DNA of 64,000 nt from a virus. Below, one piece after another: positions 11,648 to 63,625 of this stretch. The position numbers and the translations under genes were made by a program. The notes below the pieces were generated by a model, which saw only the letters and a list, made by a program, of their open reading frames with translations, was not told where the DNA came from and searched no databases. How positions within the stretch are numbered: position 1 is the stretch's first letter; every line of letters begins with the position of its first letter. The DNA lies in IMG/VR virus record IMGVR_UViG_3300047301_000191; one strand, given 5' to 3'.

Positions 11648-12069
11648 AATCAAACCGTTGGTGGATTCGCGGCTGCTCCTTGCGTGTGCTTAAACGATAT
11701 TTGCCAAAGAGTAAGTTTAGGCTCTCATATGCCGACATGAAGACCTCCTCGCTTGTTTTTTGGGATGGTTGCGCCTTTCGCATTTCTGATTGGGAGGACA
11801 TGCTCAATGAAGTGCGCGCGCTAAAACCAGGAGATCGAATCTTTAATCCCTATCGTAAGACATGGCAAACAATTACCGAGATTAAATTTGTATGGGATAC
11901 TGGTTCGCATCCGGCTTCTCGCAAAAAGCTTTCCCGCATTTTTGATTTGGTTAGTCGCTACCAATATATTGGTGGCTTCATCATTTGTGACGACACCCAT
12001 GCCTGTATCTACGATACGCCATCAGACATGGCGTACAGATACTCAGACTATCACCAGCCCATTCGCTAA
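11644..12069 (+). CDS. Hypothetical protein
   Basis: ORF, ATGA overlap. Confidence 0.4.
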   Translation: MKSNRWWIRGCSLRVLKRYLPKSKFRLSYADMKTSSLVFWDGCAFRISDWEDMLNEVRALKPGDRIFNPYRKTWQTITEIKFVWDTGSHPASRKKLSRIFDLVSRYQYIGGFIICDDTHACIYDTPSDMAYRYSDYHQPIR

Positions 12070-12079
12070 AGGAAAACAA

Positions 12080-13240
12080 ATGCGAAAACTTGCTTCAATC
12101 CAAAAGATCGTCAACATCTTCCCCATTCCAAATGCAGACCTGCTTGTTCTTGCGCAGGTAAACGATTGGCTTTCTATTGTGAAGAAGGGTGAGTTCCAGG
12201 TTGGCGAGCTTGTCGTCTACTGCGAAATTGATTCCGTTCTTCCAGAAATCCCTGCGTTTGAATTCATGAGGCAGCGAGATTATCGAGTCAATACAATTAA
12301 GCTGCGCGGCACACTGAGCCAAGGCCTCATTGTCGGTACATCGGTTCTGCCCGAAGGTACCGCGATTATTGAAGACTTTGATGTCAGCAGTATTCTTGGA
12401 GTCGTTAAGCCTATCCCTGGAAAGTCTCGCAAAGGAACACGGCAGCCTAATCGTCAAGGTCGACGGAGCAACTTCCCAAACTTCATTAAGAAAACTGACG
12501 AGACTCGTATTCAGTCCAAGTCATCTGTGCTTGATGAGCTGGAAGGTGTAGAGGTTTATGCTGCCGTCAAAATGGATGGTCAGTCATTGACGTTCGCAAA
12601 CTACGCAGCAAAAGAAGAAGATAATCCGTTTATTGTTTGCTCGCGCAACTTCAAGAAGGACCGAACGATTATCGTCAAGAGCCGAGACGAAAATGTTCCT
12701 GACCGGGAAGAGATCGACACTCATTGGCAAATCGCAGACCGACTAAAGATCTTTGAAAATCTTCCGTATGGTTTTGCAATGCAGGGAGAGTACCTTTCCG
12801 ACAAAATTCAAGGCAATCACCTAGGTGTAAAAGAGCCGGAATGGCACTGTTTTCAAGTGTTTGATATTGTGAGTCAAAAGTATCTGGACTACGCGAACTT
12901 CGTTCAGTTTTGTTTGACGATGAATATCAAGACAGTTCCAATTGAAAGAGTTTGGAAATTCTGTAAGCAAGAGTTCATAGATCTTCACGCAAAAACCTAT
13001 CCTGACTCCCTTTGTCAATCTGCAGTTGGCGGTCTGTTGCAGTTTGCAAGAGGCCGGTACAGCTCAGGCTTTCCGCGAGAAGGTCTAGTGATTCGCCCAA
13101 CTACAGAGCAATATAGCGAGTCTCTTAAAGGAAGGGCTTCATTCAAAGTCATTAATAATGACTTTCTACTGAAAGTAAAAGGCAAAGAAGATATTTATGA
13201 CGAGGATGGAGACGACGAACAGACTATAACTTCTGATTGA
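12080..13240 (+). CDS. ATP-dependent RNA ligase-family nucleotidyltransferase (KxDG motif I; Rnl2/DraRnl-like with N-terminal OB-like domain)
   Basis: ATG after AAAGGAAAA RBS; motif I AVKMDGQSL; ligase-like downstream motifs. Confidence 0.6.
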   Translation: MRKLASIQKIVNIFPIPNADLLVLAQVNDWLSIVKKGEFQVGELVVYCEIDSVLPEIPAFEFMRQRDYRVNTIKLRGTLSQGLIVGTSVLPEGTAIIEDFDVSSILGVVKPIPGKSRKGTRQPNRQGRRSNFPNFIKKTDETRIQSKSSVLDELEGVEVYAAVKMDGQSLTFANYAAKEEDNPFIVCSRNFKKDRTIIVKSRDENVPDREEIDTHWQIADRLKIFENLPYGFAMQGEYLSDKIQGNHLGVKEPEWHCFQVFDIVSQKYLDYANFVQFCLTMNIKTVPIERVWKFCKQEFIDLHAKTYPDSLCQSAVGGLLQFARGRYSSGFPREGLVIRPTTEQYSESLKGRASFKVINNDFLLKVKGKEDIYDEDGDDEQTITSD

Positions 13241-23232: not shown

Positions 23233-24027
23233 ATGAATCTACTTCAATGGCAGGAAATACAAAAATACACGCAAGAGTACGGACCTCCCAGTAAGATTGA
23301 AGGGCCTTCTCCGGGCGTTCCAAGTAACGCTTTGCGCTTTTCTCTTGAAGTGACGGACGGGCTGAAAGAAGTCATTTTAGTTTCCAACCCAAATGGGCAA
23401 ACTAAATTCATCACGCATTTTCTAAATAAAGAATTTCATCGTCCTATTGAGGAAGGCAGGGCCCTTATAGATTACCGAGAGGACGGCACTCTTAAGCGCT
23501 ATGAGTATTGGGAAAAAGGAAACAGGGTATTTATGCAAACAATGTATATCATGCGAGGCGTGCCTGGCTCAGGTAAAAGCTACATGGCAAAGCAAATCGC
23601 TACAGAGCAGTGCGGGACAATTTTCTCTACAGACGACTTCTTTATGAAGGGAGGAGAATATTTGTTTGACCCGGCTAAGCTCGGTTATTTTCATGAGCTT
23701 AACCGTCTCGCTGTCGAAAGGGCAACGGCGTCAAACGTCGAAACAATTGTTGTTGACAACACAATGACTACTCTTAAAGAAGCCAGGCAATACTGTCGAC
23801 TTGCCATGATAAATAACTACAAAGTCGTGTTTGTAGAACCAAAGACAGAGTGGGCTTTTAATGCAGAAGAGTGTGCCCGGCGAAATCAGCACGGAGTGCC
23901 TCTGGAGGCAATTGAAAGAATGCTTGCCAGATATGTTCCGGCAGAGAATTTCACCTTGGAAGCTTGCCTTGGCAAGAATTCCAATGGGGAAGATTGGACG
24001 GTCAAGGATGCCAAAGAAAGTACTTAG
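23233..24027 (+). CDS. Fusion protein: family N-terminal domain + one MORN-like repeat + P-loop kinase (polynucleotide-kinase/AAA_33-like)
   Basis: N-term MNLLQWQEIQKYTQEYGPP; Walker A GVPGSGKS; kinase-like remainder. Confidence 0.7.
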   Translation: MNLLQWQEIQKYTQEYGPPSKIEGPSPGVPSNALRFSLEVTDGLKEVILVSNPNGQTKFITHFLNKEFHRPIEEGRALIDYREDGTLKRYEYWEKGNRVFMQTMYIMRGVPGSGKSYMAKQIATEQCGTIFSTDDFFMKGGEYLFDPAKLGYFHELNRLAVERATASNVETIVVDNTMTTLKEARQYCRLAMINNYKVVFVEPKTEWAFNAEECARRNQHGVPLEAIERMLARYVPAENFTLEACLGKNSNGEDWTVKDAKEST

Positions 24028-34361: not shown

Positions 34362-34585
34362 ATAATGCTGTCGCAAGGCAAGATATGTTTAGCACAGATG
34401 GCTATTGGCGCAGGAAGCAATTGAGAACCGAACGATTCTGGAAAGAAGTGCATGGCAAAAAGTTTGAATTTTGCTGGGCGTGCAGTGGGACTGGATACTA
34501 TGACAATGACGGTGCTCCGTTTTGTGGTTCTTGCTCTGGCAAAGGAAAGACGCCACCACGTCGAGAAGCGAGTTTAGATCGATGA
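34352..34585 (+). CDS. Zn-ribbon protein
   Basis: CWACSGTGYYDNDGAPFCGSCSGKG. Confidence 0.45.
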   Translation: MALNNAVARQDMFSTDGYWRRKQLRTERFWKEVHGKKFEFCWACSGTGYYDNDGAPFCGSCSGKGKTPPRREASLDR

Positions 34586-35855: not shown

Positions 35856-36893
35856 ATGAGCAAGCTACTAACAAGAGATGAATTCAGGCGCGCAGTATTT
35901 GCGCGCGACAATAATCTTTGCGTTGTTTGCAAAGAGCCGGCTGACGCTGCCCATCACATCATTGAGCGAAGACTCTTTGTTGATGGAGGTTATTACCTTG
36001 ACAACGGAGCTTCGCTTTGTCCAGCTTGCCATATTCGTGCAGAAGAAACAACTCTTTCAGTAGAGGATGTCAGGTCGGCTGCCGAGATAAGAAACAAAGT
36101 AATTCCACCTCATCTATATGATGACACAGAGTACACGAAGTGGGGAGACGTAATCCTTAGCAATGGCGACAGGCTCCGCGGTGAATTGTTTGATGACGCC
36201 TCTGTGCAAAAGATATTGGCGCAAGGCAAAGTATTAAATCTCTATCGCCATTACGTAAAATATCCGCGCACGAATCATTTTCATTTTTCTCCTGGAATGA
36301 ACTCAGATGATCGCGCACTGCCGGATGAGTCTTGCTTTGAAGGCAAAGATGTCGTTGTAACAGAGAAACTCGACGGAGAGTCCTGTACTCAATATTCTGA
36401 CCACATCCATGCGCGATCAGTTGAATCAAAAAATCACTTATCTAGAAACGCAGTAAAGGTAATCCATGGCGCGATTGCCCATGACATCCCAAATGGTTGG
36501 AGAATTTGCGGTGAGAATCTCTGGGCAAAGCACTCAATCTATTACGACAATTTGAAATCGTACTTTATGGTATTTTCGATTTGGAATGAAAAGAACATTT
36601 GCCTGTCATGGAAGGAGACTTTGGAATGGTGCGAGTTGCTCGGCCTAACTCCAGTGCCAGTACTATATGAAGGCAAGTTTGACATCAATGAGCTTAAAAA
36701 GATTGAGAAGAGTCTTGACTTAACAAAGTCAGAAAGCTACGTTTGCCGAGACAGTGGTAGCTTTCATTTCTCTAAGTTTCCTGTGAGTGTTGCTAAATTC
36801 GTTCGAGCCGGCCACGTTCAAACAAGTCAGCACTGGATAAACCAAAAGCTGACTCCTAATTTACTAGCAGACAGAAACATTAAAGTAGGCTAA
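35856..36893 (+). CDS. HNH nuclease domain fused to an RNA-ligase-like nucleotidyltransferase domain
   Basis: HNH: CVVCKEPADAAHHIIERRL...NGASLCPACH; ligase motif I VVTEKLDGESC; later ICGENLWAKHS and KFVRAGH. Confidence 0.6.
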   Translation: MSKLLTRDEFRRAVFARDNNLCVVCKEPADAAHHIIERRLFVDGGYYLDNGASLCPACHIRAEETTLSVEDVRSAAEIRNKVIPPHLYDDTEYTKWGDVILSNGDRLRGELFDDASVQKILAQGKVLNLYRHYVKYPRTNHFHFSPGMNSDDRALPDESCFEGKDVVVTEKLDGESCTQYSDHIHARSVESKNHLSRNAVKVIHGAIAHDIPNGWRICGENLWAKHSIYYDNLKSYFMVFSIWNEKNICLSWKETLEWCELLGLTPVPVLYEGKFDINELKKIEKSLDLTKSESYVCRDSGSFHFSKFPVSVAKFVRAGHVQTSQHWINQKLTPNLLADRNIKVG

Positions 36894-38237: not shown

Positions 38238-38332
38238 CACAGCAGTCGGAGCAAGCAGTGGCTTGCTCTTTTTTGTTCTTCTTGCGCCATTCTTCCTACT
38301 GGGTTTGGTCTTGTTATTCTTTGGAGGTTGAG

Positions 38333-39472
38333 ATGATGGACTTCGATCTATATAGTCATACCAGCCTACTTTGCCGTTCGGGCAGCAGGCTGTACGGAAT
38401 CAATAACGCTGATTCCGACATCGATGTGCAGGGCTGCGCAGTACCGCCGGTTAAGTACTGGCTTTCAAACCTAGAGTTTGAACAGTCAAACGATGCGGCA
38501 AAGCTACAAGACGCACGATTCATGGCATTGTTTACTGACGATGAACGAAAGATCATCGCAGCGACTAAGCTTGAAGGAACAATCTACGGCGTAAAGAAGT
38601 ACATTCATCTGGCGGGAGAAAGCAATCCCAATGTGCTTGATGGTGTTTGGGCTCCAGATAGCGCAGTCCTTCGTTGCGACCGAATCGGAGAATTGATTCG
38701 AGAGAATCAAAAATTGTTCCTTACCCTGTCGGCACTTCCTCGGTTTGTTGGTTACTCAGTTGGCCAGCTTAAAAAGATGAACTTGCACAGGCAGTATTTT
38801 GCCAATCCTAGGCTTGTCAAACCAGAGCGAGCCAACTACAATCTCAACGCCCCAGACGATTATACACCTAATGAATTGGACGCGCTGCGAGCCGCAATCA
38901 AAAAGCAGGTAGATTCTTGGCAGCCATCTTTCACCGACAAAATGAGTCAGGTGGATATCATTGCAATCAAAGATCACTTTAGCCGAACTCTTGAAGAGAT
39001 GTCAATCGCCCAGGAAGATCGATACCTACTGGCGGAACGTCGACTCGGGGTGCCCGGCTCACTAAAGGAATACTTTGAGAAGGAGCGCCGCTTCCAATTG
39101 GATATGGATGCATTCAAAGATTACCAGAAGTGGCTTAAGGATCGCAACCCAGCGCGTGCGGCCTTGGAAGCAAAGGTTGGATACGACACTAAGTTTGCCG
39201 TGCATCTGATTCGTTTGCTTCGTGCTTGCTGTGATATCTTGCGCACTGGAACCTATATGGTTGATCGTACAAATATTGACGCAGAGCTGCTACGAGAAAT
39301 CCGAGCTGGCAACTTTAAGTATGAAGATATTCTTGCCATGAGTGATGCACTAAAGGTAGAGGCTTTTGAGCTTGGAAAGTTAAATCCTAAAGGCTTGCCA
39401 CAGCAGCCACAGCATGACAAAATCAATGATCTTCTGGTCAATATTGCAAAGAGTAGCTTTGGATGGAACTAG
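38333..39472 (+). CDS. Pol-beta-superfamily nucleotidyltransferase (predicted; PF10127-like)
   Basis: ATG after GGAGG RBS; NTase motif GSRLYGINNADSDIDVQG. Confidence 0.6.
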   Translation: MMDFDLYSHTSLLCRSGSRLYGINNADSDIDVQGCAVPPVKYWLSNLEFEQSNDAAKLQDARFMALFTDDERKIIAATKLEGTIYGVKKYIHLAGESNPNVLDGVWAPDSAVLRCDRIGELIRENQKLFLTLSALPRFVGYSVGQLKKMNLHRQYFANPRLVKPERANYNLNAPDDYTPNELDALRAAIKKQVDSWQPSFTDKMSQVDIIAIKDHFSRTLEEMSIAQEDRYLLAERRLGVPGSLKEYFEKERRFQLDMDAFKDYQKWLKDRNPARAALEAKVGYDTKFAVHLIRLLRACCDILRTGTYMVDRTNIDAELLREIRAGNFKYEDILAMSDALKVEAFELGKLNPKGLPQQPQHDKINDLLVNIAKSSFGWN

Positions 39473-48748: not shown

Positions 48749-49288
48749 ATGAACATCTTTGCGAGAATTCTTTTCATTCCACTCAACTTATTGTTGCTGC
48801 TTGTTGACAAGATTGTCTTTCCATTCCTGCAATCCAAACCACACTTTTGGCAAGTGACCGCTAAGAAGAATCAAATCTACCTAGAGATAGAGAGAAACCA
48901 TTTCCTGTTTTCTCGTCTTTTTGATGAAGATGTATTTTCTCCTGTTGCCCGGCAGGAACTACTGTCTGCCTCTAAGGCCGCAAACCAAACGGCGGCAGTA
49001 CTCCATCTTTACTCTGCGTATGCGGCTCTCTCGGAATTTGCAAGGAATTGCGAAGCTGCAGGATTTGAGCTTAACGCACAGTGGATTGAAAGACTTAACT
49101 CCGCCAATCAACACCTCTTTGAGCGAGTATTGGCCAAGTTTTCAAAGTATGATCAAACTCTAATTTACCATAATTTGCCCAGACTTTATTCTGCCACTTC
49201 ACGAGCGATTCATCGCACAGAATTCAGTGGCGTAGTTACCGTAGGGAATACCGATGAGCTTGACACATTCCAACTCACTGCAGAATAA
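48749..49288 (+). CDS. Hypothetical protein with N-terminal TM helix
   Basis: ATG after GAGGAATACA RBS. Confidence 0.45.
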   Translation: MNIFARILFIPLNLLLLLVDKIVFPFLQSKPHFWQVTAKKNQIYLEIERNHFLFSRLFDEDVFSPVARQELLSASKAANQTAAVLHLYSAYAALSEFARNCEAAGFELNAQWIERLNSANQHLFERVLAKFSKYDQTLIYHNLPRLYSATSRAIHRTEFSGVVTVGNTDELDTFQLTAE

Positions 49289-49808
49289 GCAGGACAACAG
49301 GCCAATCATTGTTCTTGATTTTGATGGAACAATGAACCCTGTCCCATTTTATGGACAAGAAGACCACGACTTTGTTTTTGATATTAGCACATGGGTAAAT
49401 ACAACAAATGAAGATGGATCGGCTTGGCGATACAAGGTGAATCTTTCCACAGAGATGGCCGCTGAAATAATTCAGCTTGGCACAGTCATGTGGCTTACGT
49501 CATGGGTCCGTTGGGCCGATGATGCAAATACAGTTATTGCGCCATTGCTTGGGTGGGGCCGCTTGCCTATTGTTCCCTTTGAAAAGGATCGGCCAGATTG
49601 GAAGCATCATGCAATGCAGCAATTGCTAGCGGATGACGGCCCACCAGTTGTTTGGATCGATGACGAAGCAGAACAAATTATTGAAGAGGGAAGAAATCGA
49701 ATTCCATTGGATCCTTATGATAGGCTGATTGTGTGCGCCCCTTGGACCGACTATGGAATGCGCAGGTCAGACTTTAATCAAATAACCTCTGGCCTCAAGG
49801 AAAAGTAA
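49254..49808 (+). CDS. HAD-superfamily phosphatase (DxDGT motif; candidate polynucleotide 3'-phosphatase)
   Basis: Motif I IIVLDFDGTM near the N-term; WIDDEAE later. Confidence 0.55.
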   Translation: MSLTHSNSLQNKQDNRPIIVLDFDGTMNPVPFYGQEDHDFVFDISTWVNTTNEDGSAWRYKVNLSTEMAAEIIQLGTVMWLTSWVRWADDANTVIAPLLGWGRLPIVPFEKDRPDWKHHAMQQLLADDGPPVVWIDDEAEQIIEEGRNRIPLDPYDRLIVCAPWTDYGMRRSDFNQITSGLKEK

Positions 49809-53792: not shown

Positions 53793-54170
53793 ATGAATCT
53801 GAATCAATGGGAAGTGATCGCTGAATTAGCTGAACAATACTCTTCCCCTAAGATTACTCATGGATCCTTCGTCTTTCTTAAAGAAGAAAAATCAGCGATT
53901 GTCTGTTTTTATGAGTGTGGTCAAATCAAATCTTGTACCTACTCCAACAGAGTAGGTTATCATCGCCCCCATCAGGAAGGCCCTGCAAATCAGATTTTCT
54001 ATAGGGATGGAAATATCAGCTGCACCCAGTACTTCTTAGATGGACTACTTTATCGGCCACCTCATTTGGGGCCTGCCTATAAGAGTCTATATCAGGATGG
54101 ACGAGTTTTGCTCGCAGAGTACTGGCAGTATGGGAAGAAGTTCGCGCCTCTACAATCGGCGCCACTCTAA
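53793..54170 (+). CDS. MORN-variant repeat protein
   Basis: N-term MNLNQWEVIAELAEQYSSP; repeats YHRPHQEGPANQIFYRDG, YRPPHLGPAYKSLYQDG. Confidence 0.7.
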   Translation: MNLNQWEVIAELAEQYSSPKITHGSFVFLKEEKSAIVCFYECGQIKSCTYSNRVGYHRPHQEGPANQIFYRDGNISCTQYFLDGLLYRPPHLGPAYKSLYQDGRVLLAEYWQYGKKFAPLQSAPL

Positions 54171-54183
54171 GTGGGGGGTGACT

Positions 54184-54594
54184 GTGAATATCGATAGTTG
54201 GCAAAAGATACGAGAGCTTACTGAAAAGTACGGACCTCCCAAAAGTGACGGGCGAAAGGGAAACGGATTAACATTCGAGAAATCAAACACTAGCGTTTGG
54301 GTGGGCCTTCGTCCATCTGGTTCGATTTCATATATCGAGTACAGTGAATCAAGTAGCGAACACTCTATTTTAATGCTTTCCAGACCACATCTAGATGGAC
54401 CTGCTGTAGAATCATTCCATGACAATGGCAAAGTCCATTGCAGATACCATTACAAAAGTTCGTTGCTGCACAGGCCTACTGATCTAGGACCAGCCTACGT
54501 AAACTACGGTTATGATGGGGCGCTCATGGGATGTTCATACTATCATATGGGAATTTCGCAGCAAAAAGTGGATGCAATTAGCCTAAGGAGTTGA
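54184..54594 (+). CDS. MORN-variant repeat protein
   Basis: GTG start; N-term VNIDSWQKIRELTEKYGPP; repeats SRPHLDGPAVESFHDNG, HRPTDLGPAYVNYGYDG. Confidence 0.65.
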   Translation: MNIDSWQKIRELTEKYGPPKSDGRKGNGLTFEKSNTSVWVGLRPSGSISYIEYSESSSEHSILMLSRPHLDGPAVESFHDNGKVHCRYHYKSSLLHRPTDLGPAYVNYGYDGALMGCSYYHMGISQQKVDAISLRS

Positions 54595-55355
54595 GCTTGC
54601 TAGTCTATAATACAGATCAGCTTAATGAAGTACGTGCAGTAATCACTGCGCACGCCAATATGCATCGCGGTCTAATCAGTGAGCTGCCAGAGGCAAGTCC
54701 TTACGCTACAGCAGAGGGGCTTCGCTGCTGGCTGAATTCTCGTCGCGATCTTAAAAGCAGAATCCTTGAGATGATTAAAGACTTGAAAGAAGAAGAGTCT
54801 GCAATTGCCACACTAGAGAATTTTGTCTGTATCTATAAGCCACGCCCGGTTAGCAATAAGAAACAAAAAACTCCAGCAAAGCCAACGCCCAAAGTCACAG
54901 AACCAAGTTGCTTTCATTGGCGGCGAAGAGTCCGCCCTACAGTCATTGTGGATTTGATCCAGATATGGAATGCCGCGCCTAGCTTTGATATATATGGTGC
55001 AATTCTAGACGGAAGAGCAGCTACCCCAAGCGACCTTTTCGCGCCAGTTGAAGGGTGGACGCCTGACTCTATGCCAGATTCAGTTCTTGCGCTAAGAGAG
55101 GCAGAGTCCACTTTCGTCAAAGAAGATAACGAATACATCCCATATCGCACTGGCTTTTACCAATCTCTCATGATGACAAAGTCATCCAATGTTCTTTGGT
55201 TTCTTCAGGCTTTTATGATTGGGTTCCTTTTTGTATTTTTGTTCTCCAGAGATGGCCAAATACAAATGTTTAGTCAGGTAATGCTGATTCTTAGTGGGAT
55301 AGCTATTGCGATAACAGCAAGTACATCATGCCATTCTCCAAAGGCAAAAGTATGA
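54591..55355 (+). CDS. Hypothetical protein with C-terminal TM helices
   Basis: TTG start; VLWFLQAFMIGFLFVFLF hydrophobic segment. Confidence 0.45.
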   Translation: MSLLVYNTDQLNEVRAVITAHANMHRGLISELPEASPYATAEGLRCWLNSRRDLKSRILEMIKDLKEEESAIATLENFVCIYKPRPVSNKKQKTPAKPTPKVTEPSCFHWRRRVRPTVIVDLIQIWNAAPSFDIYGAILDGRAATPSDLFAPVEGWTPDSMPDSVLALREAESTFVKEDNEYIPYRTGFYQSLMMTKSSNVLWFLQAFMIGFLFVFLFSRDGQIQMFSQVMLILSGIAIAITASTSCHSPKAKV

Positions 55356-55672
55356 AGCTTAACACATTTGCTGCCATTTGCACGTCTGATAAAGTAAAGG
55401 TCCTTGCCGGAGTAGATGCTGAGTTACGAAAATTTACGACCACAGAAAAATATAACGGTCATCGACTGAACTTCACAGCACACAATCGTAGCGCTATATC
55501 AGGCAAGTGGTATACAGAGATACATCTCTACAGGTATTTTACAAACGCACATTATGCAAGATGTATGCAGTGGGAAGGCTCCACCGTGAACTGGGTATTC
55601 TCTCATAGAGATTACCATGAGCTGATTTCTGCCTGCAAAATCTTTGTCGATGAAATCGCCATCTTTGAATGA
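55352..55672 (+). CDS. Hypothetical protein (N-term MKLNTFAAI)
   Basis: Internal ATG overlapping the upstream stop. Confidence 0.4.
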   Translation: MKLNTFAAICTSDKVKVLAGVDAELRKFTTTEKYNGHRLNFTAHNRSAISGKWYTEIHLYRYFTNAHYARCMQWEGSTVNWVFSHRDYHELISACKIFVDEIAIFE

Positions 55673-55715
55673 GTAGACACTAATCTAAATATCCAGAATC
55701 CACCGGAGACAAAAA

Positions 55716-56462
55716 ATGAGACAAATAGTACTTACTGATCTCCATGGCTGCTACGATGAAATGCGCCGCCTGCTGGATCAAATCAAATTCGACAGCACCG
55801 ATACGATTATTGGTGCGTCTGACGCCGTAGACAAAGGCCCTCATTCTGCTGAAGTTGTGCGTTTTCTTGCGGATCTAGGTTGCCAAGTCAGGCAAGTCCG
55901 AGGCAATCATGAGATGAAGTTCTTGCGCTTTGTAAAGGCTTATCGAAAAGATTCGTCTAAAGCTATGGAGCGCCGTGGCTCTCGCGACATGGAGCGCACA
56001 ATGAATGGACTCAGGGAATCTGATCTTGAATGGCTTGCGAGTGGAGCGACGTGGGCGGATGTCAAGGGACACAACGCAATCGTAGTTCATGCTGGTATTG
56101 AGCCCGCCATGAAGCGACTGCCGGAACAATTTCCTGAAGACAAAAAGAAGCTCGAATCTTGCTCGGCGCTGTGGTACACTCGTTTCGTCAAGAACGGGCG
56201 GATGGTCAAGCTTGGTGAAGAAGACCCAGAATGTCAATTCTGGGCGGATGTTTATGACGGCAGGTACGGCACCGTCTACTATGGTCACCAGCCATTTATG
56301 CAGGCTGACCCTCGCATCTCAGAGCACGCCGTAGGGCTCGATCTTGGTGGAGTTATGGGTGGGCAACTTGCTGCCGCTATCTTCTACGAAGACAGGGTTG
56401 AGTTTGATAAAGTGGCTTGTCAAGAATATGTTTCGCCAAAAGCCGCGTATGGTGACGAATGA
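55716..56462 (+). CDS. Calcineurin-like metallophosphoesterase (PPP-family phosphatase, lambda-PPase/ApaH-like)
   Basis: Motifs TDLHGC (GDxHG), SDAVDKGP (GDxxDRG), RGNHE (GNHE). Confidence 0.8.
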   Translation: MRQIVLTDLHGCYDEMRRLLDQIKFDSTDTIIGASDAVDKGPHSAEVVRFLADLGCQVRQVRGNHEMKFLRFVKAYRKDSSKAMERRGSRDMERTMNGLRESDLEWLASGATWADVKGHNAIVVHAGIEPAMKRLPEQFPEDKKKLESCSALWYTRFVKNGRMVKLGEEDPECQFWADVYDGRYGTVYYGHQPFMQADPRISEHAVGLDLGGVMGGQLAAAIFYEDRVEFDKVACQEYVSPKAAYGDE

Positions 56463-56851
56463 ACTTGGATGCGACCGCAAGAATCCTGTCAACAGGCCTT
56501 TGGGTTAAGTCAAAAGAAAAGCCACCAAGCCCAGTGTCACAGTGGTGGGATGATATTGCTGAGCGTCGATACCGGCTAAATATCGTGAATTTCCAAACAG
56601 TTTACATTGTCTCTGTGTCGGATATGAGGGCTGAAGATTTTTGGCGGGGCGAAGGCAGACTGTTTTACGTCGCATTTGATAATGAAGCCCAGAGTGCCGA
56701 GGATGCTCTATTTGTAAACCTAAAGGAGGATGCTCTACTTGTAAACCTAAAGAGTTCCTTCGATGAAGCCACTGTTCTAGCCGCCTACAATCGTTTCATT
56801 CCCAGTGACTTGCGTGAATACGCACCATTTTGTGACAAGAGGAAAGTATGA
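56459..56851 (+). CDS. Hypothetical protein containing a 27-nt tandem duplication
   Basis: ATGA overlap on both sides (operon with phosphoesterase and Thg1-like gene). Confidence 0.45.
   Translation: MNLDATARILSTGLWVKSKEKPPSPVSQWWDDIAERRYRLNIVNFQTVYIVSVSDMRAEDFWRGEGRLFYVAFDNEAQSAEDALFVNLKEDALLVNLKSSFDEATVLAAYNRFIPSDLREYAPFCDKRKV
56699..56752 (+). repeat. 27-bp direct tandem duplication (gaggatgctctaYttgtaaacctaaag x2), in-frame (EDALFVNLK EDALLVNLK)
   Basis: Two adjacent copies differing at one position. Confidence 0.8.
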
Positions 56852-57708
56852 CGACAACCACCACAGAAGCAACTGCGCGCCTGCCTTCTCTTGAAGAACA
56901 ATTCCAAGAATTGGAGCGACTTGAAGACCAGCGCATTCCGTCCTCTCAAGGTTTCATCACCAGGCTTGATGGTCGAGGTTTCTCAAAGCTAACGCAGAAA
57001 CTTGATAAGCCATTCGATTCCGACTTCAATCGAGCAATGAGGGCTGCGGCAGTATCTTTGTTTGTAGACTTTAACCCGCTGCTCATCCACACAGGCAGTG
57101 ACGAAATTTCTGCATACTTTCCTGCTCAAAAAGGAGAAACAGGGGAACACCCATTTAATGGAAGGATTCAAAAGATTCTTTCGGTTGTAGCTGGCGTCGT
57201 TTCCACTGCCTTTAATCAAGTCACATCGAGCCAAGAGTTTAAGGCAAAGCTGACTGATCGTGCAGTATTTGATGCACGAATCGTAAAGGTTACTCCCGAG
57301 TTGGCTGCTGCGTATTTTGTTTGGCGAGAGCAAAACACAAAGAGAAATTCTGTTCAAATGGCTTGTCGCACCGTTATGTCGCACAAGGCAATGAATGGGC
57401 TGAATCAAACGCAGCAGTTTCTTGCGCTTCAAGAATACGGCATTGATTGGAACAATTATGACCGCATGAATAAGCGCGGAATCTTGCTACAAAAGCAATC
57501 CAATCAGCTTCGGCTCACAGCACAAGATATCTCACAATTGCCCGAGAGGCATGATCTGCGCGTGGCGGCAAGTTCATCAGAGGGTGGCGACGTTGTCATT
57601 GTTCGCAACGAAGTTGTGGAGCTTGACTTGCCCCCATTGGCTTCAGTTGCAAATCTGTATGAATGCCTTTTTGAGAAGGCAATCCCGGAGCTAAAAGATG
57701 ACAAATGA
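56848..57708 (+). CDS. Thg1-like protein (tRNA-His guanylyltransferase family, 3'-5' nucleotide-addition/tRNA 5'-end repair enzyme)
   Basis: FITRLDGRGFSKLT, TGSDEISAYFP, FNGRIQKILSVVAGVVSTAFN, VFDARIV, YFVWREQNTKRNSVQMACRTV, EYGIDWNNYDRMNKRGILL align with conserved Thg1 blocks. Confidence 0.8.
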   Translation: MTTTTTEATARLPSLEEQFQELERLEDQRIPSSQGFITRLDGRGFSKLTQKLDKPFDSDFNRAMRAAAVSLFVDFNPLLIHTGSDEISAYFPAQKGETGEHPFNGRIQKILSVVAGVVSTAFNQVTSSQEFKAKLTDRAVFDARIVKVTPELAAAYFVWREQNTKRNSVQMACRTVMSHKAMNGLNQTQQFLALQEYGIDWNNYDRMNKRGILLQKQSNQLRLTAQDISQLPERHDLRVAASSSEGGDVVIVRNEVVELDLPPLASVANLYECLFEKAIPELKDDK

Positions 57709-57889
57709 TAATGAAGTTTCGGTTTACTGTGAGCTATTGAAGTATCTCTCTACTCATTCGATTGGCGATGCGGCAGAGGCACTTGGTGTAACTAGCGACA
57801 CAATTGCTCTTTGGCTCAGGCGAGATGCAAGGACCCCTGCATGTATTGCTAGCGCAGTAATTCAGGTTCTTGCGCTCAGGAATTCCTAA
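57698..57889 (+). CDS. Small HTH DNA-binding protein (putative regulator)
   Basis: IGDAAEALGVTSDTIALWLRRD helix-turn-helix; overlaps the Thg1-like stop. Confidence 0.45.
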   Translation: MTNDNEVSVYCELLKYLSTHSIGDAAEALGVTSDTIALWLRRDARTPACIASAVIQVLALRNS

Positions 57890-57890
57890 T

Positions 57891-58286
57891 ATGCAAATTG
57901 ATGAATGGGAATGGATTTCAGCGGTTGCGATAGCAAATAAAAATCTATGCAGAGAGTCCATTCTTGACATGGGAGAGACGCTTGGAATTCGATTTGTTAT
58001 GCCAAGATTTACCAATAGTATTCTGAAGTCAAGCACTCCATATATCTTTATAGAATACGATTATGAATCGGGAAAACATATCCCAAACAAACACATACTT
58101 AATTCCCGCATTCACGCGGGTACGAATGGCCTGCGCGCACTTGAATTACAAACAGTCATTCATCTGGGCAAAACACTTCATATGTGCATTCACGATATAC
58201 ATTTCCATGAGACTATCGTTGGATATCAGGAAGAAAAATATTGGAAGATATCGGGAAGCTGGAATGTGTTTGCGCCAGAACACTGA
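57891..58286 (+). CDS. Hypothetical protein (N-term MQIDEWEWISAV)
   Basis: Internal ATG of ORF 57870. Confidence 0.4.
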   Translation: MQIDEWEWISAVAIANKNLCRESILDMGETLGIRFVMPRFTNSILKSSTPYIFIEYDYESGKHIPNKHILNSRIHAGTNGLRALELQTVIHLGKTLHMCIHDIHFHETIVGYQEEKYWKISGSWNVFAPEH

Positions 58287-58294
58287 GGGATTAA

Positions 58295-58741
58295 ATGCAA
58301 CTAGACTCGTTCACAGAAATCATTCTTTCTCTAAACAAACCAGTCCAGATTTCATCTGATACTTTTTGGGATAAAGATCGTCTCTATCGGTTTGATAGTG
58401 ACCTTCACAACCTTGCCGACAAGCCAACCGCAGAATCATTCTGCAAGTATATGTCCGTAGAAAATAGATTAAGTCAAAAAAATGAAGAAATCGCCATATC
58501 GGAAGAAAGTCTAAACGGCATCAAGTGGCGATGCTTCTACTGGCGAAGAAATCAAATCTATCGCCGAGATGATTGGACAAGCGTTAAATCAGTGTTCTTA
58601 AGGTTGGCTGGAGATTCTTATGGATTCCTCGGTGAGGAAAAATCACATGTTGACTATTCGTTGCCGAAGCTTCAGCTTGAAGACTTGGGCATCTTTTCAG
58701 AAGAAGTGGTGCTGAAGTTTTTTGGAGATAATATTGAATAA
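58295..58741 (+). CDS. Tandem paralog family E, member 1
   Basis: N-term MQLDSFTEIILSLNKPVQIS; shared YW..NQIYR and GIFSE motifs. Confidence 0.5.
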   Translation: MQLDSFTEIILSLNKPVQISSDTFWDKDRLYRFDSDLHNLADKPTAESFCKYMSVENRLSQKNEEIAISEESLNGIKWRCFYWRRNQIYRRDDWTSVKSVFLRLAGDSYGFLGEEKSHVDYSLPKLQLEDLGIFSEEVVLKFFGDNIE

Positions 58742-58792
58742 TAACCTCATGGTTGAGGCAAGCGGGTTGAAGGTCGTACGCCGGAGGATTGA

Positions 58793-59209
58793 TTGGAATT
58801 AGATATATTTACGGAAGTTATTCTTTCGCTAAACGATCCTCGCGAAATCAGCCGCGAGCAATTCTGGAGCGTTCGTCGTCAAGAATTCGATGGAGATCTT
58901 CGCATGTTACTTGGTGAACCAGACTGCACCGTGAAGTACTTAACGGTGGACAATTTGATTACAGGACAAAAAGAAGATATCGCAATCGCACATGAGGGAA
59001 ATAACGGGGACTGCCTTTACTGGCAACAAAATCAAATCTATAGGTCGGCCGAAAGAGTGCCGGTAACTTACTTCAAGGCTTCTGGTGTCCGTTATGGGCG
59101 GCTAATGCTTGGCGGATTCAGGAATGAAAAAGCACTCTCTGTAGAAAGCCCTGGTATATTTTCCGAATACATCGCGCAGAAATACATTAGGATCAGCCGT
59201 GAAACTTGA
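58793..59209 (+). CDS. Tandem paralog family E, member 2
   Basis: TTG start; N-term MELDIFTEVILSLNDPREIS; YWQQNQIYR; GIFSEYI. Confidence 0.5.
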   Translation: MELDIFTEVILSLNDPREISREQFWSVRRQEFDGDLRMLLGEPDCTVKYLTVDNLITGQKEDIAIAHEGNNGDCLYWQQNQIYRSAERVPVTYFKASGVRYGRLMLGGFRNEKALSVESPGIFSEYIAQKYIRISRET

Positions 59210-59663
59210 TTTTATGAGCGAGTTGCTCGCAGCAATAAACGATCCTATTATCGTCGGAGAAGAGGATTTTCATCGAGACTCTCCTGCCTGTATGTATTTT
59301 CACACAAGTTACTACGACGCGGTCGATTATCGCTGTCCAATCACATACTACTCTGTATGGAATGCCTTTAAGTCCTGCAGAGAGATTTGCGCACAAGCCA
59401 TTGAGATGTCGTCGAGGGTTACAGCCATGTCGAGAACTGTGTCGGGGAAAGAAACCACGTTTTATTGGCAGAACGAAAAGATATACTATAACTTCATAAT
59501 AGACGAATTTTGCATCAGCTGTGATTCTCATGATTTTGGCAACGAGCCGAAATTCTTTAATCCGCGAGACACAAATGACACTAAGTATGAACTTACAAAA
59601 GATCAAGCGGGAATCTTTTCAGAAAACTTCTATCTGAAACACTTTTTAATCTTAAGCAATTAG
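59199..59663 (+). CDS. Tandem paralog family E, member 3
   Basis: GTG start; N-term VKLDFMSELLAAINDPIIV; YWQNEKIYY; GIFSENF. Confidence 0.45.
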   Translation: MKLDFMSELLAAINDPIIVGEEDFHRDSPACMYFHTSYYDAVDYRCPITYYSVWNAFKSCREICAQAIEMSSRVTAMSRTVSGKETTFYWQNEKIYYNFIIDEFCISCDSHDFGNEPKFFNPRDTNDTKYELTKDQAGIFSENFYLKHFLILSN

Positions 59664-59753: not shown

Positions 59754-60122
59754 ATGAGTTTCGATATTCCGACTGCATATTCAGAAATGCCGCCAGCGCC
59801 GCAGAGTATGGCTTCCGCCCACAGAAGGCCGAGGACATCGCGTAAATCATCCAATTATCTTAGGACCTTGATTGGGCCACCACATGGATGGAAGCCTCAG
59901 ACCTACTACATAGGTGACTGCTCAGTTGGAGTAGGAAATCCCACATGGCGGTGCATTGTTTTTTCTGGCTTCCTTAATGGACCGAACGGCGATCCTGGAG
60001 GTTACTCTTGCATCTGGAGTGCGACTGGAGATCAAATGCCAATAGACGAATCCTATTATCTTGCTATTGTCATGGAGATTGGCAACATCAACGGCCCTCC
60101 TCAACTCCCAGAGCAACCATGA
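59754..60122 (+). CDS. Hypothetical Gly/Pro-rich protein
   Basis: ORF downstream of motif copy 10. Confidence 0.45.
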   Translation: MSFDIPTAYSEMPPAPQSMASAHRRPRTSRKSSNYLRTLIGPPHGWKPQTYYIGDCSVGVGNPTWRCIVFSGFLNGPNGDPGGYSCIWSATGDQMPIDESYYLAIVMEIGNINGPPQLPEQP

Positions 60123-60448
60123 ATCTAAAACAATGGGAAGAAATCAGCAAGCATCTCGAAGAGTACAGCGAGCTATCTGTTGTTGGTGACCATCGTGACT
60201 GCTTTTCGCTTTGTACTCCAACCAATCCCAAACACAGAGTTTTTCTTTCGTTTTTCAGCAATGGGCAGGTGCATTCACGTCGCTACATGGATGGCCTTGT
60301 AACCCATCGCCCTATCTCCGAAGGGCCTGCTTTTGAAAGCTTTGGCATGGACGGCAGTATTTTTACCCGCGCCTTTTGCGTAAATGGTCACTATGTGGCG
60401 ACAGATAAAAATTATCCTAAATCATACAGTCGGAAGGATGACAAATGA
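60119..60448 (+). CDS. MORN-variant repeat protein
   Basis: ATGA overlap; N-term MNLKQWEEISKHLEEYSEL; repeat HRPISEGPAFESFGMDG. Confidence 0.6.
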   Translation: MNLKQWEEISKHLEEYSELSVVGDHRDCFSLCTPTNPKHRVFLSFFSNGQVHSRRYMDGLVTHRPISEGPAFESFGMDGSIFTRAFCVNGHYVATDKNYPKSYSRKDDK

Positions 60449-61257: not shown

Positions 61258-62367
61258 ATGGACATTAAGCAGCTGATTGATTTTGACTCTGGCCTTCACC
61301 CCCACATGCCCCGCTTCTTGGGCGGGCCTGCTGGTCTTGGTAAGTCAAGTGTCGTGAAGATGATTGCCAAACTGCGCGGTATGCGAGTTGTTGATCTTCG
61401 CCTTTCCGAGCTTGAGCCTGCCGACCTTGTCGGTATGCCTTATGTTGACAAGACCGTAGATGGTCAGGTTGTGACCCGCTACGCTGCCCCGACCTGGTGG
61501 TACAATCTTGAGAACGCCATCCTGCTGCTGGACGAGCTGGACCGTGCTCGTGAAGATATGCAGCCTCTGGCGATGCAGTTGACCTTGGACCGCCGTGCCG
61601 GTGGTCGTGATCTGCCAGCCAGCACGATTGTGTTCGCTGCAGGTAACGGTCTCAAGTACCAGACCGCTACGATTGACCAGGCTCTCTGCAACCGTATGGC
61701 CATGATTGAGTTCACGCCTACCGCTGCAGAGTGGACCGCTTGGGCTCAGGAAGAAAGCAGCAACGTTCACCCTGCCGTCGCCCAGTTCATTCAGCAGAAC
61801 AAGCAACTGCTTGATATCTCTGATGCTGACGTTGGCAAGCCCAACCTTCCTGTTCCTAGCCGTCGTAGCTGGGCCAACTTTGGTGGGATGCTGCTTGACC
61901 GCGAAGACTCCAAGAAGGCGATTCAGGATATCGCCAAGGCAAGCAACAACCTGCTTGTTTGGGGTGAGCCGTTCGTTGGTCAGGTGGCCGCTCATGCTTT
62001 CGCAAGCTGGGTGAAGGATAAGTTCAACCCGCTCGATATCATGGATATCTTCAACGGCAAGATCAAGGATGCTGAAGGTTTCCCCATCACCCAGGTCATT
62101 CAGTCTCTGAGCGACGTGATGGAAATCTTTATCTCCGACAAGGTCGATGACAAGCAGCGTACCAACGCCGGCCTGTTCTACGCCGCCATCGGTCGTGAAA
62201 CCTTTGCCGCCTTCTTCAACCGTCTGCCCAACGAATACGCTGGTATTGTTGTCGGTAACAAGACCCTGCAGGAAGCCACCAACGCCCTGCTTGAAGCCAA
62301 GCGTTCGGCGAATGCCAAGCCCAAGAAGGAAGGCGAGGCTGACGGCGAAGCCGCTGCCAGCAAGTGA
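61258..62367 (+). CDS. MoxR-like AAA+ ATPase (CbbQ/NorQ/CobS-type)
   Basis: Walker A GGPAGLGKS, Walker B LLLDELDRA; GC-rich codon usage versus window background. Confidence 0.8.
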   Translation: MDIKQLIDFDSGLHPHMPRFLGGPAGLGKSSVVKMIAKLRGMRVVDLRLSELEPADLVGMPYVDKTVDGQVVTRYAAPTWWYNLENAILLLDELDRAREDMQPLAMQLTLDRRAGGRDLPASTIVFAAGNGLKYQTATIDQALCNRMAMIEFTPTAAEWTAWAQEESSNVHPAVAQFIQQNKQLLDISDADVGKPNLPVPSRRSWANFGGMLLDREDSKKAIQDIAKASNNLLVWGEPFVGQVAAHAFASWVKDKFNPLDIMDIFNGKIKDAEGFPITQVIQSLSDVMEIFISDKVDDKQRTNAGLFYAAIGRETFAAFFNRLPNEYAGIVVGNKTLQEATNALLEAKRSANAKPKKEGEADGEAAASK

Positions 62368-62375
62368 GCTAAAAG

Positions 62376-62420
62376 CTAGGCGGGGAAGCCTACAGGTAAT
62401 CCCCGCCTAGTTTCTCACTT
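62376..62420 (+). terminator. Rho-independent terminator (ctaggcgggg-N15-ccccgcctag + T-rich tail)
   Basis: 10-bp perfect GC stem 9 nt after stop 62367. Confidence 0.55.
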
Positions 62421-62455
62421 GTTTCTGTTTTTAACCCGAGCCAAAAGGAAAGAAG

Positions 62456-63625
62456 ATGGCACAATCGTATAACCTACGATCCCTGACCGTAGAAGAGATT
62501 GTTGAGCTGACCGACACAGAGCCAATGATTTCGTATTTTTTGCATCTCTCCCACATCCATGAAGATGACGAGATGAAGTTTGCCGCAGGCGTGTATGTAA
62601 AGGCGGGGCAGCCCCACCTACTGATGAACCCAACCATGATGAACACCTTTTCTGTACGAGAAAAGATTGGTGTTATTGTGCACGAGTTTATGCACGCGAT
62701 GTTGGCTCACTGCACGACACGCACGACCAATGAAGAGAATCGGCGTAAGACTGAGAACATCGCGAAAGACATGGCGATCAATCAGCTTATCGTTGACCCG
62801 CGCTATGGGAACTGGGATTTGCCAAACGGTTGCGTTTCGCATACCGATCCTCGTTTCAACTATCCAGCGGGACTCTCGGCGGAAGAGTATTACGCCAAGA
62901 TTAAGGAGGAGCATTCCGAAGACGACATCAGCAAGAACTTCGGTGACCTTGGTTTTGACGACCACTCGAACTGGAGTGAGGATGACGACATGGCTGGTAC
63001 GCAGGTAATCAAGCAAATGGCCCGGCGCTATTTGACTGGTACCAACGCCCAGCGTGGTCGCACTCTTGCTGCTGGTACACTGGCGAACTCAATGATTGAA
63101 GAAATTCTCAGCGTGGAGAATAACGACATTGATTGGCGAGCCAAGACCCGTCAGTGGCTTTGTCGTGTAGCCGATCCCAAGGCTAAGTTTACTTGGAAGC
63201 GAATGAGCAAGCGCTATGGGGCTCCATTCCAAGGCACGAAGATGAAGACCAAGAATAAGGTCTGTGCGATTGTCGATACATCTGGCTCCATGAGTCAGTC
63301 ATTCTTGGCTCACATCGGTGGCCAGTTGAACCAGATGTCTCGCATCATGCAGGTTGATGTTGTGTTCGTAGACGCTGAAGTGCATGGAGCGATTAAGAAG
63401 TTTCGTCCATCCGCTCAGCTAGCATTCCCAGGGCGTGGCGGCACCGACATGCAGCCAGGTTTTGACTATGCGATGGAAGAAGGATATCGTGGAGTTATTT
63501 GCTTTACGGACGGCGGCCTCTGGCGCCAACCAGAATGCAATCTCAAGACGCTTTGGGTAGTAATGAACAACCGTGGCTTTACTTCGCCTATTGGCGAGGT
63601 GGTTCACGTTGATTGGCGGGAGTGA
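62456..63625 (+). CDS. VWA-domain protein with N-terminal HExxH putative metallopeptidase domain (DUF2201-like MoxR partner)
   Basis: VIVHEFMHAMLAH zinc-binding motif; C-terminal MIDAS motif VDTSGSM; directly follows the MoxR ATPase with a conserved leader. Confidence 0.75.
   Translation: MAQSYNLRSLTVEEIVELTDTEPMISYFLHLSHIHEDDEMKFAAGVYVKAGQPHLLMNPTMMNTFSVREKIGVIVHEFMHAMLAHCTTRTTNEENRRKTENIAKDMAINQLIVDPRYGNWDLPNGCVSHTDPRFNYPAGLSAEEYYAKIKEEHSEDDISKNFGDLGFDDHSNWSEDDDMAGTQVIKQMARRYLTGTNAQRGRTLAAGTLANSMIEEILSVENNDIDWRAKTRQWLCRVADPKAKFTWKRMSKRYGAPFQGTKMKTKNKVCAIVDTSGSMSQSFLAHIGGQLNQMSRIMQVDVVFVDAEVHGAIKKFRPSAQLAFPGRGGTDMQPGFDYAMEEGYRGVICFTDGGLWRQPECNLKTLWVVMNNRGFTSPIGEVVHVDWRE

Follow-up and report, generated by a model that had tools for sequence, protein, structure and literature searches.

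The four plus-strand genes at positions 55716-57889 of the IMG/VR virus record IMGVR_UViG_3300047301_000191, in which a metallophosphoesterase gene and a gene for a Thg1-like protein (TLP) stand one gene apart, constitute one module of a phage RNA/tRNA end-repair toolkit rather than a self-contained new system, in the reading that we prefer and hold with about even confidence. The stretch analysed, called the window below, is 64 kb long and consists of a dense plus-strand gene array of a large phage. The components of the cluster and their logic are already known, from phage RNA-repair sets and from Thg1 genes linked to end-healing enzymes, and the repair of tRNA is an established form of counter-defence in phages. 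The pairing of the two genes is uncommon and loosely conserved, and recurs sporadically. The features of the locus, with the open reading frames (ORFs) numbered from the 5' end and protein lengths in amino acids (aa), are the following.

55716..56462, plus strand: ORF1, phosphoesterase, 248 aa, PPP-family, ApaH-like/Pnkp-phosphatase-like (Pfam, PHROG and PDB profile matches)
56459..56851, plus strand: ORF2, ORFan, 130 aa, no family match
56699..56752, plus strand: tandem duplication inside ORF2, 27 bp, in frame, EDALFVNLK / EDALLVNLK (TRF)
56848..57708, plus strand: ORF3, TLP, 286 aa (Pfam, PHROG and PDB matches)
57698..57889, plus strand: ORF4, small protein, 63 aa, probably helix-turn-helix (HTH) (sub-threshold HTH matches)
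54591..55355, plus strand: conserved upstream neighbour, 254 aa, C-terminal hydrophobic stretch read by eye, no family assignment

The earlier note, made by a model from the sequence without database searches, had recognised the third gene as Thg1-like, and the searches agree. ORF3 matches the Pfam Thg1 family (PF04446) with 91.4 bits (cut-off 29.2, E=5.9e-26), phrog_4717 'tRNA-His guanylyltransferase' with E=1.3e-49, and the structure of the B. thuringiensis TLP (BtTLP, 4kgk) with E=1.7e-22. The catalytic Asp/Glu triad and the residues that bind the nucleoside triphosphate (NTP) are all conserved. The three carboxylates D41, D85 and E86 align with D30, D75 and E76 of BtTLP and with D29, D76 and E77 of the human enzyme (hTHG1), and E23, R39 and R144 align with E12, R28 and R131 of BtTLP, which contact the incoming NTP (residue roles according to PMC3701042). 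All six residues are invariant across an alignment of 15 TLP sequences. M171 aligns with M158 of BtTLP, a position that corresponds to N161 of ScThg1 and is Asn in eukaryotic Thg1. The RNSVQMA segment of ORF3 stands opposite HINNLYN of C. albicans Thg1 (CaThg1, 3wbz), a motif that we take to be typical of eukaryotic Thg1 and absent from TLPs. Without HINNLYN, and with a non-Asn residue at the M158 position, ORF3 belongs to the TLP subgroup. The Thg1 C-terminal domain (PF14413, Thg1C) gives no Pfam match at E<=0.1; the alignments to the PHROG and to the PDB structure, however, extend to residues 217-236, and the tail (residues 220-286) carries an LPPLA motif that is common to a phage/Myxococcota TLP subfamily. 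Two metagenome scans for closer relatives of ORF3 found none, and an exact look-up of its protein sequence gave no entry. Judged by these residues, ORF3 is predicted to have an intact catalytic site and to be of the templated-repair (TLP) type. The repair of 5'-truncated tRNA is an activity of bacterial TLPs, and the characterised enzymes favour such tRNAs irrespective of tRNA identity; they require a 5'-phosphate or triphosphate, make App-/Gpp-tRNA intermediates, and use or leave 5'-triphosphates (PMC3061083).

ORF1 matches Pfam Metallophos with E=3.6e-13, and its best PHROG is phrog_246 'NinI-like serine-threonine phosphatase' (E=1e-26). When a profile of the ORF1 family is compared with the PDB, the top match is the T. 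brucei ApaH-like phosphatase 2qjc (1.2e-28, full length), followed by the phosphatase of C. thermocellum Pnkp (CthPnkp, 4j6o, 4.2e-20). ApaH is matched with 1e-17 over the N-terminal half only, and lambda PPase with 4.5e-11 over the N-terminal 65 residues only. The label 'lambda-PPase-like' that had been given to this gene was therefore right about a PPP-family metallophosphoesterase and wrong about closeness to lambda PPase, the protein being nearer to ApaH-like phosphatases (ALPHs) and to the Pnkp phosphatase. ORF1 stays under every NCBIfam equivalog cut-off (ApaH, PrpE, Pnkp, PrpA/PrpB). Against the ApaH equivalogs TIGR00668 and NF001204 it scores 84 bits (cut-off 176) and 58.8 bits (cut-off 222.85), with only the N-terminal 131 residues aligned, and against the Pnkp equivalog TIGR04075 it scores 52.6 bits (cut-off 750), aligned to model positions 184-421, which cover the phosphatase domain only.

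The PPP signature motifs place ORF1 in that family. They read TDLHG, SDAVDKG, GNHE and HAG, together with GH191 and D209, and their departures from GDxHG, GDxxDRG, GNHE and HGG are conservative (G to T, G to S and R to K). The metal/phosphate ligands D8, H10, D36, K40, N64, H65, H125, H191 and D209 are invariant in the ORF1 family. Nine residues are essential in the CthPnkp phosphatase, namely D187, H189, D233, R237, N263, H264, H323, H376 and D392 (PMC2190708). By a mapping that follows motifs and not a structural superposition, eight of the nine are identical in ORF1, and the counterpart of R237 is K40. In CthPnkp, R237K raises the kcat of the 2',3'-cyclic phosphodiesterase, an activity which lambda PPase also has (PMC2190708). 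Lys for Arg in motif 2 is, on the other hand, a hallmark of ALPHs, for which a six-motif definition exists (PMC8220851). ORF1 lies outside this definition. The Lys is present and motifs 3, 4 and 5 fit, but motif 1, in which T replaces G, and motif 2, with S in place of G and A at position 3, are outside both the narrow and the extended ALPH matrices, and motif 6 (LDLG) fits only the extended one. ORF1 thus appears ApaH/Pnkp-like and is placed in neither family; it looks ALPH-like, but is no strict ALPH member. From its motifs it is predicted to be a catalytically intact, active-looking phosphoesterase of the PPP family. The start at 55716 is preferred because the gene call P0021 (233 aa), which starts 15 codons later, would lose the DxH metal-binding motif; the 248-aa form is P0068.

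Conservation of the pair in related phages, on which the earlier note had staked its proposal, holds in part. Both closest relatives have the pair. A sibling contig of 2.9 kb (P0001, TLP 93% identical) encodes phosphoesterase, a 124-aa protein, TLP and a 63-aa protein, in the order of the window. L004, from a contig of 155 kb whose synteny with the window extends to the AAA and DUF2201 genes downstream, has the order phosphoesterase (66% identity), 141-aa ORF, 145-aa ORF, TLP (47% identity). In the next relatives other genes stand in the place of the TLP. In L087/L088, which share the upstream gene and have a phosphoesterase of 58% identity, a 152-aa ORF is followed by an RNA ligase where the window has the TLP, and in L175 (52%) and L173 (49%) an RNase T-like exonuclease overlaps the phosphoesterase stop codon. 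Short ORFs without assigned function follow the phosphoesterase of L177 (59% identical), and within 6 kb of that of L093 (51%) neither a TLP nor an RNA-ligase homologue occurs. The constant part of the locus is the phosphoesterase; the gene after it is interchangeable (TLP, RNA ligase or RNase T-like exonuclease). Homologues of the protein encoded at 54591-55355 lie directly upstream of the phosphoesterase in L004 (7723-8346) and L087 (5240-6004).

Among more distant relatives, a search with a hidden Markov model (HMM) of the subfamily for phosphoesterases at most 6 kb from a TLP returned one viral case, L060, where the protein is an 822-aa kinase-Metallophos-Rnl1 fusion, and three cellular ones, L183 with a bona fide Pnkp (148 bits), L249 with a kinase-Metallophos-Rnl1 protein, and L241 with a stand-alone phosphoesterase 230 nt downstream of the TLP. 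Phosphoesterase-centred searches returned L092 and L119, each with a TLP 1.6-2.6 kb away and with different gene orders. Linkage is thus seen in about six mutually divergent lineages, in three of them as Pnkp-type fusions (L060, L183 and L249). Between linked lineages, TLP identities are 27-49% and phosphoesterase identities 21-38% in almost all pairs, the closer pairs being the window with L004 and L060 with L249. The low pairwise identities imply that the linkage is either ancient or has arisen repeatedly. In L119, we also noted a compact ligase-TLP pair (8167-10162), in which the gene of an ATP-dependent ligase (414 aa, PF01068 + OB_2) and the start of the TLP gene share 8 nt, with the phosphoesterase relative 2.6 kb upstream.

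The phosphoesterase family has further partners, which are largely RNA-end enzymes as well. An RNA ligase adjoins the relatives in L087/L088 and L157, and is found within 6 kb in L103, L109, L137, L140, L157 and the Aeromonas phage AhSzq-1, which also has a 3'-5' exonuclease upstream. An RlaP nucleotidyltransferase lies within 6 kb in L114, L140, L154 and L167, and Pnkp-like fusions are near the relatives in L126 and L128. HD_4 hydrolases also occur within 6 kb of phosphoesterase relatives, and the relative in the Ochrobactrum phage vB_OspM_OC has a nucleotidyltransferase, MazG, NMNAT-Nudix and NadV as neighbours.

If the cluster is a repair module, the role of ORF3 would be to restore tRNA acceptor stems that have lost nucleotides at the 5' end, by templated 3'-5' addition to an end that bears a 5'-phosphate or a 5'-triphosphate. 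ORF1 would most likely be a healing enzyme that, like its homologous domain in bacterial Pnkp, opens 2',3'-cyclic phosphates at RNA ends and perhaps also takes off 3'-phosphates, and it could in this way make the ends left by host tRNA-targeting nucleases usable by 3'-OH-dependent enzymes. A kinase encoded elsewhere in the window (23233-24027) could supply the 5'-phosphate for the TLP on 5'-OH ends. Healing of 3' ends by ORF1 is favoured because most of the recurrent partners of its family (ligases, RlaP and the RNase T-like exonuclease) need a clean 3'-OH, and because the homologous Pnkp domain opens 2',3'-cyclic phosphates. The sequences themselves show the domain identities, the conserved active-site residues and the patterns of gene neighbourhood, from which we infer the substrates, the order of action and a putative role in counter-defence. 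The earlier note had instead proposed a two-step module in which a phosphate is removed first and the 5' end is extended thereafter. Removal of the 5' phosphate would work against the TLP, since it would destroy the 5'-phosphate or triphosphate end that is the substrate of this enzyme (PMC3061083), and the partners point to 3'-end healing. This scheme is therefore rejected.

The junctions between the four genes had been described correctly. As read from the sequence, ORF1 and ORF2 share an ATGA (56459-56462), ORF2 and ORF3 share a second ATGA (56848-56851), and ORF3 and ORF4 overlap by 11 nt (57698-57708). The conclusion that the genes form a translationally coupled operon stands as far as the overlaps go, but the four genes are not a distinct unit. 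Among the 101 same-strand (+) neighbour gene pairs of the window, 50 overlap, in 17 cases with an ATGA-type junction, and the flanking genes are equally tight (55328-55672 upstream, 57870-58286 downstream). Overlaps are therefore the general architecture of this phage genome and its default form of coupling, not the mark of a special unit, and a four-gene operon boundary is arbitrary. A scan for promoters and terminators gave no signal delimiting the four genes and no convincing operon boundaries. ORF1 and ORF3 are co-transcribed within a long, densely packed gene array. Minus-strand ORFs at 55875-56288, 56989-57432 and 57734-58036 were dismissed, as they lie inside well-supported plus-strand genes. 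The composition analysis gave no sign of recent foreign origin, and a DNA-level search of 54500-59500 against GenBank phages gave no match.

Several observations weigh against a repair module. The linkage is infrequent, with 5 of 166 TLP-centred loci (L004, L060, L183, L241 and L249) and 1 of 80 phosphoesterase-centred viral loci (L119). A rough background estimate, which rests on assumed gene densities and not on a computed control, gives about 0.4 expected cases in cellular genomes against three seen, and no demonstrable enrichment in phages. The TLP neighbourhoods of the three cultured phages DSS3_MAL1, BcepSauron and Gurke contain no homologue of the ORF1 family, and the Ralstonia phage RsoM2USA has both genes about 36 kb apart. 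The overlaps carry little information, with half of the same-strand junctions in the genome overlapping (50/101). The two enzymes would work at different ends, the phosphatase at the 3' end and the polymerase at the 5' end, and nothing in their mechanism forces a coupling; we know of no host nuclease that yields 5'-truncated tRNAs needing a TLP. Finally, the Arg-to-Lys exchange in ORF1 is an ALPH hallmark, so that pyrophosphatase or decapping chemistry is equally compatible with its sequence.

In view of the low co-occurrence rates, the two genes might be uncoupled neighbours in a hypervariable accessory island. The phosphoesterase would then act on alarmones or signals of the Ap4A type, or on phosphoproteins in the manner of NinI or lambda PPase, as the name of its best PHROG would suggest, and the TLP would act alone. 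We regard this as possible, though on the unlikely side. In its favour, the slot downstream of the phosphoesterase varies among close relatives, and neither TLP nor RNA ligase is near the phosphoesterase of L093, the closest IMG/VR relative. Phosphoesterase relatives are also found among MazG, NMNAT-Nudix, NadV and HD_4 genes, and phage TLPs mostly adjoin NUDIX, PRPP-synthetase-like, T5 A1-like, UDG and HD_4 genes. However, chance neighbourhood does not easily account for linkage in about six mutually divergent lineages, Pnkp fusions included. Moreover, the other occupants of the slot are nucleic-acid end enzymes and not random genes, and the ligase in the slot of L087 has a close homologue elsewhere in the window, which suggests shuffling within one functional set.

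Alternatively, an ApaH-like ORF1 could share its site of action, the tRNA 5' end, with the TLP, and would there trim the 5'-triphosphate after the last templated addition, or remove dead-end App-/Gpp-tRNA or Np4N caps. The product would be the 5'-monophosphate that is needed if the tRNA is to function or to be activated once more. The best full-length match (2qjc, 1.2e-28), the ALPH-defining Lys in motif 2 (SDAVDKG) and the presence of ALPH motifs 3-5 are in line with this idea, as are the App-/Gpp-tRNA and 5'-triphosphates of the TLP reaction (PMC3061083). ALPHs and ApaH accept a broad set of substrates and are able to decap RNA (PMC8220851, PMC13069679), and the alternative partner, RNA ligase, also uses a 5'-adenylylated intermediate and needs a 5'-phosphate. 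On the other hand, ORF1 fails the strict ALPH test at motifs 1 and 2 and is under the ApaH cut-offs, and the RNase T-like exonuclease, RlaP and the Pnkp fusions as partners point to 3'-end chemistry. We consider action of ORF1 on the 5' end improbable. More doubtful still is the stricter proposal that ORF1 is a dedicated 5'-end (pyro)phosphohydrolase, which would clear 5'-triphosphate, App/Gpp or Np4N before or after extension in a so far undescribed two-enzyme phage pathway of 5'-end repair against host attack. If 5'-end coupling were true, it would hint at host attacks on the 5' ends of tRNA that belong to a novel class; if false, the locus would be one more sporadic combination within a recognised repertoire.

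The least convincing explanation is maturation of tRNA-His, in which the TLP would add G-1 opposite C73 on phage or host tRNA-His, without a repair role and with an irrelevant phosphoesterase; it has little support and is quite improbable. Bacterial tRNA-His G-1 is normally genome-encoded. Most phage records annotate the TLP as tRNA-His guanylyltransferase, and about 9 of 86 phage TLP loci lie within or beside an array of tRNA genes, but tRNA-His is within 6 kb of the TLP in 2 of the 86 loci only, and the 64-kb window has no tRNA-His gene. BtTLP is able to add a templated G-1 to C73-tRNA-His (PMC3061083), yet ORF3 is TLP-type (no HINNLYN, Met at the M158 position), and the characterised TLPs prefer 5'-truncated tRNAs of any identity.

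The two remaining genes of the cluster are lineage-specific. ORF2 has no Pfam, PHROG or NCBIfam family. An exhaustive HMMER search among 1.84 billion representatives identified a sole homologue, P0067 (124 aa, 84% identity), at the same position in the sibling contig, and no ORF2 homologue follows the phosphoesterase in any other locus examined. The in-frame 27-bp tandem duplication that had been reported for ORF2 was found by TRF (period 27, 2.0 copies, 96% match). It is recent and lineage-specific, because P0067 has a single copy of the repeat unit. The AlphaFold2 (AF2) model of ORF2 is unusable (pLDDT 35). For ORF4, a small HTH protein had been suggested. A small HTH-like ORF is indeed present, but its HTH matches are sub-threshold only: HTH_28 (19.8 bits, cut-off 25), MerR, Sigma70_r4_2 and HTH_23 all match residues 13-42. 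The AF2 model has four helices, with a pLDDT of 72 overall and of 85-91 over residues 11-40. A Foldseek search with this model found nothing significant (best E 1.6), in a list dominated by HTH regulators. ORF4 has no homologues except identical copies, and a gene of the same length (63 aa) stands in its place in the sibling contig. ORF4 is weakly HTH-like and probably an HTH protein.

Besides the TLP and the phosphoesterase, the window encodes a wider set of candidate RNA-repair enzymes.

11888..13240, plus strand: RNA ligase (PHA02142 OB-fold + PF09414); phrog_968 3.2e-62; PF21189 + PF09414
21247..22398, plus strand: T4 Rnl1-like RNA ligase; phrog_562 3.6e-41; PF09511 4.7e-12
23233..24027, plus strand: P-loop kinase (AAA_33) resembling polynucleotide kinase (PNK); PF13671 1.2e-13; phrog_505 'polynucleotide kinase' 1.7e-13; Walker A GVPGSGKS
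35856..36893, plus strand: HNH + PF09414 RNA ligase; phrog_24030 8.2e-123; PF09414 1.4e-27 + HNH
38258..39472, plus strand: RlaP-family (RNA repair pathway pol-beta) nucleotidyltransferase; PF10127 7.6e-16; phrog_388 8.4e-43
49254-49808: weak match to HAD_SAK_2, the HAD domain of 'Swiss army knife' RNA repair proteins

The ligase at 11888-13240 is a close homologue (phmmer 2e-87) of the ligase beside the phosphoesterase in L087, and by sequence similarity it is the probable ortholog. This multi-enzyme repertoire is of the same kind as the RNA-repair sets described for jumbo phages (PMC7824862).

The window contains three tRNA genes, which are also the only Rfam matches. The acceptor stems of all three are fully paired, with CCA encoded, and the idea of a 5'-editing of mismatched acceptor stems in phage tRNAs was rejected for this reason. 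One of the three, tRNA-Thr(UGU) at 6759-6842, is 84 nt long and was called by ARAGORN and Rfam (51 bits); its minimum free energy fold has a non-canonical D-arm and anticodon region, and it may contain an insertion.

Other genes of the window are mentioned for completeness. Small paralogous repeat proteins are scattered over it in at least 12 copies (9524-9898, 11162-11647, 14152-14544, 24354-24674, 25080-25496, 28606-28992, 28920-29372, 32353-32760, 34522-34923, 53793-54170, 54040-54594 and 60008-60448), with related copies in L004 at 17046-20431. The same domain is fused to the PNK-like kinase at 23233-24027 as its N-terminal ~100 aa, and the only hint at a family is a weak MORN_2 match. Downstream of ORF4, two tandem paralogues (58295-58741 and 58793-59209; 39% identity, E=1e-25) matched no family, and 59199-59663 is probably a third, as judged by eye from its N-terminal 'LD.F.E..L..N.P' pattern. 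A Lon-like ATP-dependent protease is encoded at 25497-27887 (phrog_4871, E=1e-259). A pair of genes for an AAA/MoxR-like ATPase and a DUF2201 protein (VWA-like metallopeptidase) at 61258-63625 is 76-83% identical to the L004 copies.

The statement that TLPs are rare in phages is not borne out. By tblastn, TLP homologues are present in 162 of 50,697 GenBank phage records, where they are usually annotated as tRNA-His guanylyltransferase. These are mostly large phages of Bacillus, Prevotella, Caulobacter, Mycobacterium, Brevundimonas and other hosts. A pattern scan of IMG/VR identified at least 570 contigs with a confirmed TLP, and phage TLPs have a dedicated PHROG family (phrog_4717). They also appear in earlier surveys. 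Anantharaman, Iyer and Aravind (2010, PMC2904730) reported a Thg1 copy in phage 201phi2-1 and, for bacteria, a linkage of Thg1 with genes for PNK, Macro and RNA ligase, and Iyer et al. (2021, PMC7824862) listed Thg1 among jumbo-phage RNA-repair enzymes, with calcineurin-like phosphatases too as sporadic components. In the literature searched, we found no experimental study of a phage-encoded TLP, no paper on a pair of Thg1 and metallophosphoesterase, and no description of a TLP combined with an ApaH/Pnkp-like phosphoesterase that stands alone, in agreement with the earlier note, which had held that the pairing is not a described system.

The commonest neighbours of phage TLPs comprise, in addition to the NUDIX, PRPP-synthetase-like, UDG and HD_4 genes mentioned above, SIR2 genes and a family of 519-531 aa. 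This Metallophos-containing family lies immediately downstream of the TLP in 11 loci, and was considered as a phosphoesterase partner. It was excluded, as it corresponds to the T5 A1-like 'DNA transfer protein' (phrog_1745). In L007, L008, L011, L016, L017, L020, L023, L033, L056 and L063 (~4900-8500 each), the TLP is located between the PRPP-synthetase-like and T5 A1-like genes; L053 (944-2530) has the T5 A1-like gene only. With NUDIX and SIR2 genes near the TLP, the locus of this IMG/VR phage clade (L007, L008 etc.) has the look of an island for NAD/nucleotide counter-defence. A few TLPs adjoin small phosphoesterases that belong to other families, namely phrog_547 (DSS3_MAL1, L070 and L075) and phrog_1649 (L029, L052 and L083). 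AAA_33 kinases adjoin TLPs in L202 and L246.

The main value of the locus is that it offers a compact experimental entry to phage TLPs and to the role of this phosphoesterase family. Together with its relatives and the repair set of the window (three RNA ligases, kinase, RlaP, TLP and phosphoesterase), it provides a compact, testable gene set for tRNA-end restoration in large phages. It also raises the wider question whether the ApaH/Pnkp-like phosphoesterase is a general end-healing partner of interchangeable nucleotidyltransferases.

Each of the two enzymes has characterised counterparts. With bacterial TLPs (BtTLP, 4KGK, and the Myxococcus-type enzymes), ORF3 shares the catalytic domain, the carboxylates, the NTP-binding residues and the lack of HINNLYN, and with those of Myxococcota also the C-terminal LPPLA tail. 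In contrast to the cellular TLPs, it is phage-encoded, is only ~30-35% identical to them, has ~15-35 extra N-terminal residues, and shows no detectable match to the Pfam Thg1C model. ORF1 has a PPP domain homologous to that of bacterial Pnkp from the Pnkp/Hen1 RNA repair system (CthPnkp, 4J6O), with the essential residues conserved. Unlike the three-domain Pnkp, it is a stand-alone protein of 248 aa without fused kinase or ligase, and it has Lys as the equivalent of Arg237. The ApaH/ALPH group (T. brucei 2QJC, ALPH1 decapping enzyme) provides the best full-length match and shares the motif 2 Lys and motifs 3-5, whereas ORF1 has TDLHG instead of GDxHG in motif 1, and SDA instead of GD plus a hydrophobic residue in motif 2. 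Lambda PPase and the NinI-like phage phosphatases, from which phrog_246 takes its name, belong to the same PPP superfamily, but the match of ORF1 to lambda PPase is much the weaker one, and PrpA/PrpB are far under their cut-offs.

At the level of the gene set, two known arrangements are closest. In the bacterial neighbourhoods of Thg1 with PNK, and with Macro and RNA ligase genes (PMC2904730), a TLP is likewise linked to an RNA end-healing enzyme, and a repair function has been inferred. Here, the linked healing enzyme is a phosphoesterase and not a kinase, the kinase being ~33 kb away in the window. In T4, where Pnk and Rnl1 repair tRNA, and in the jumbo-phage sets (PMC7824862), the restoring enzyme is a ligase and the phosphatase is HAD-type, whereas in the cluster described here, as read from its genes, they would be a 3'-5' polymerase and a PPP-type enzyme. 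The logic would be the same, a healing enzyme combined with a sealing or restoring enzyme against host tRNA nucleases.

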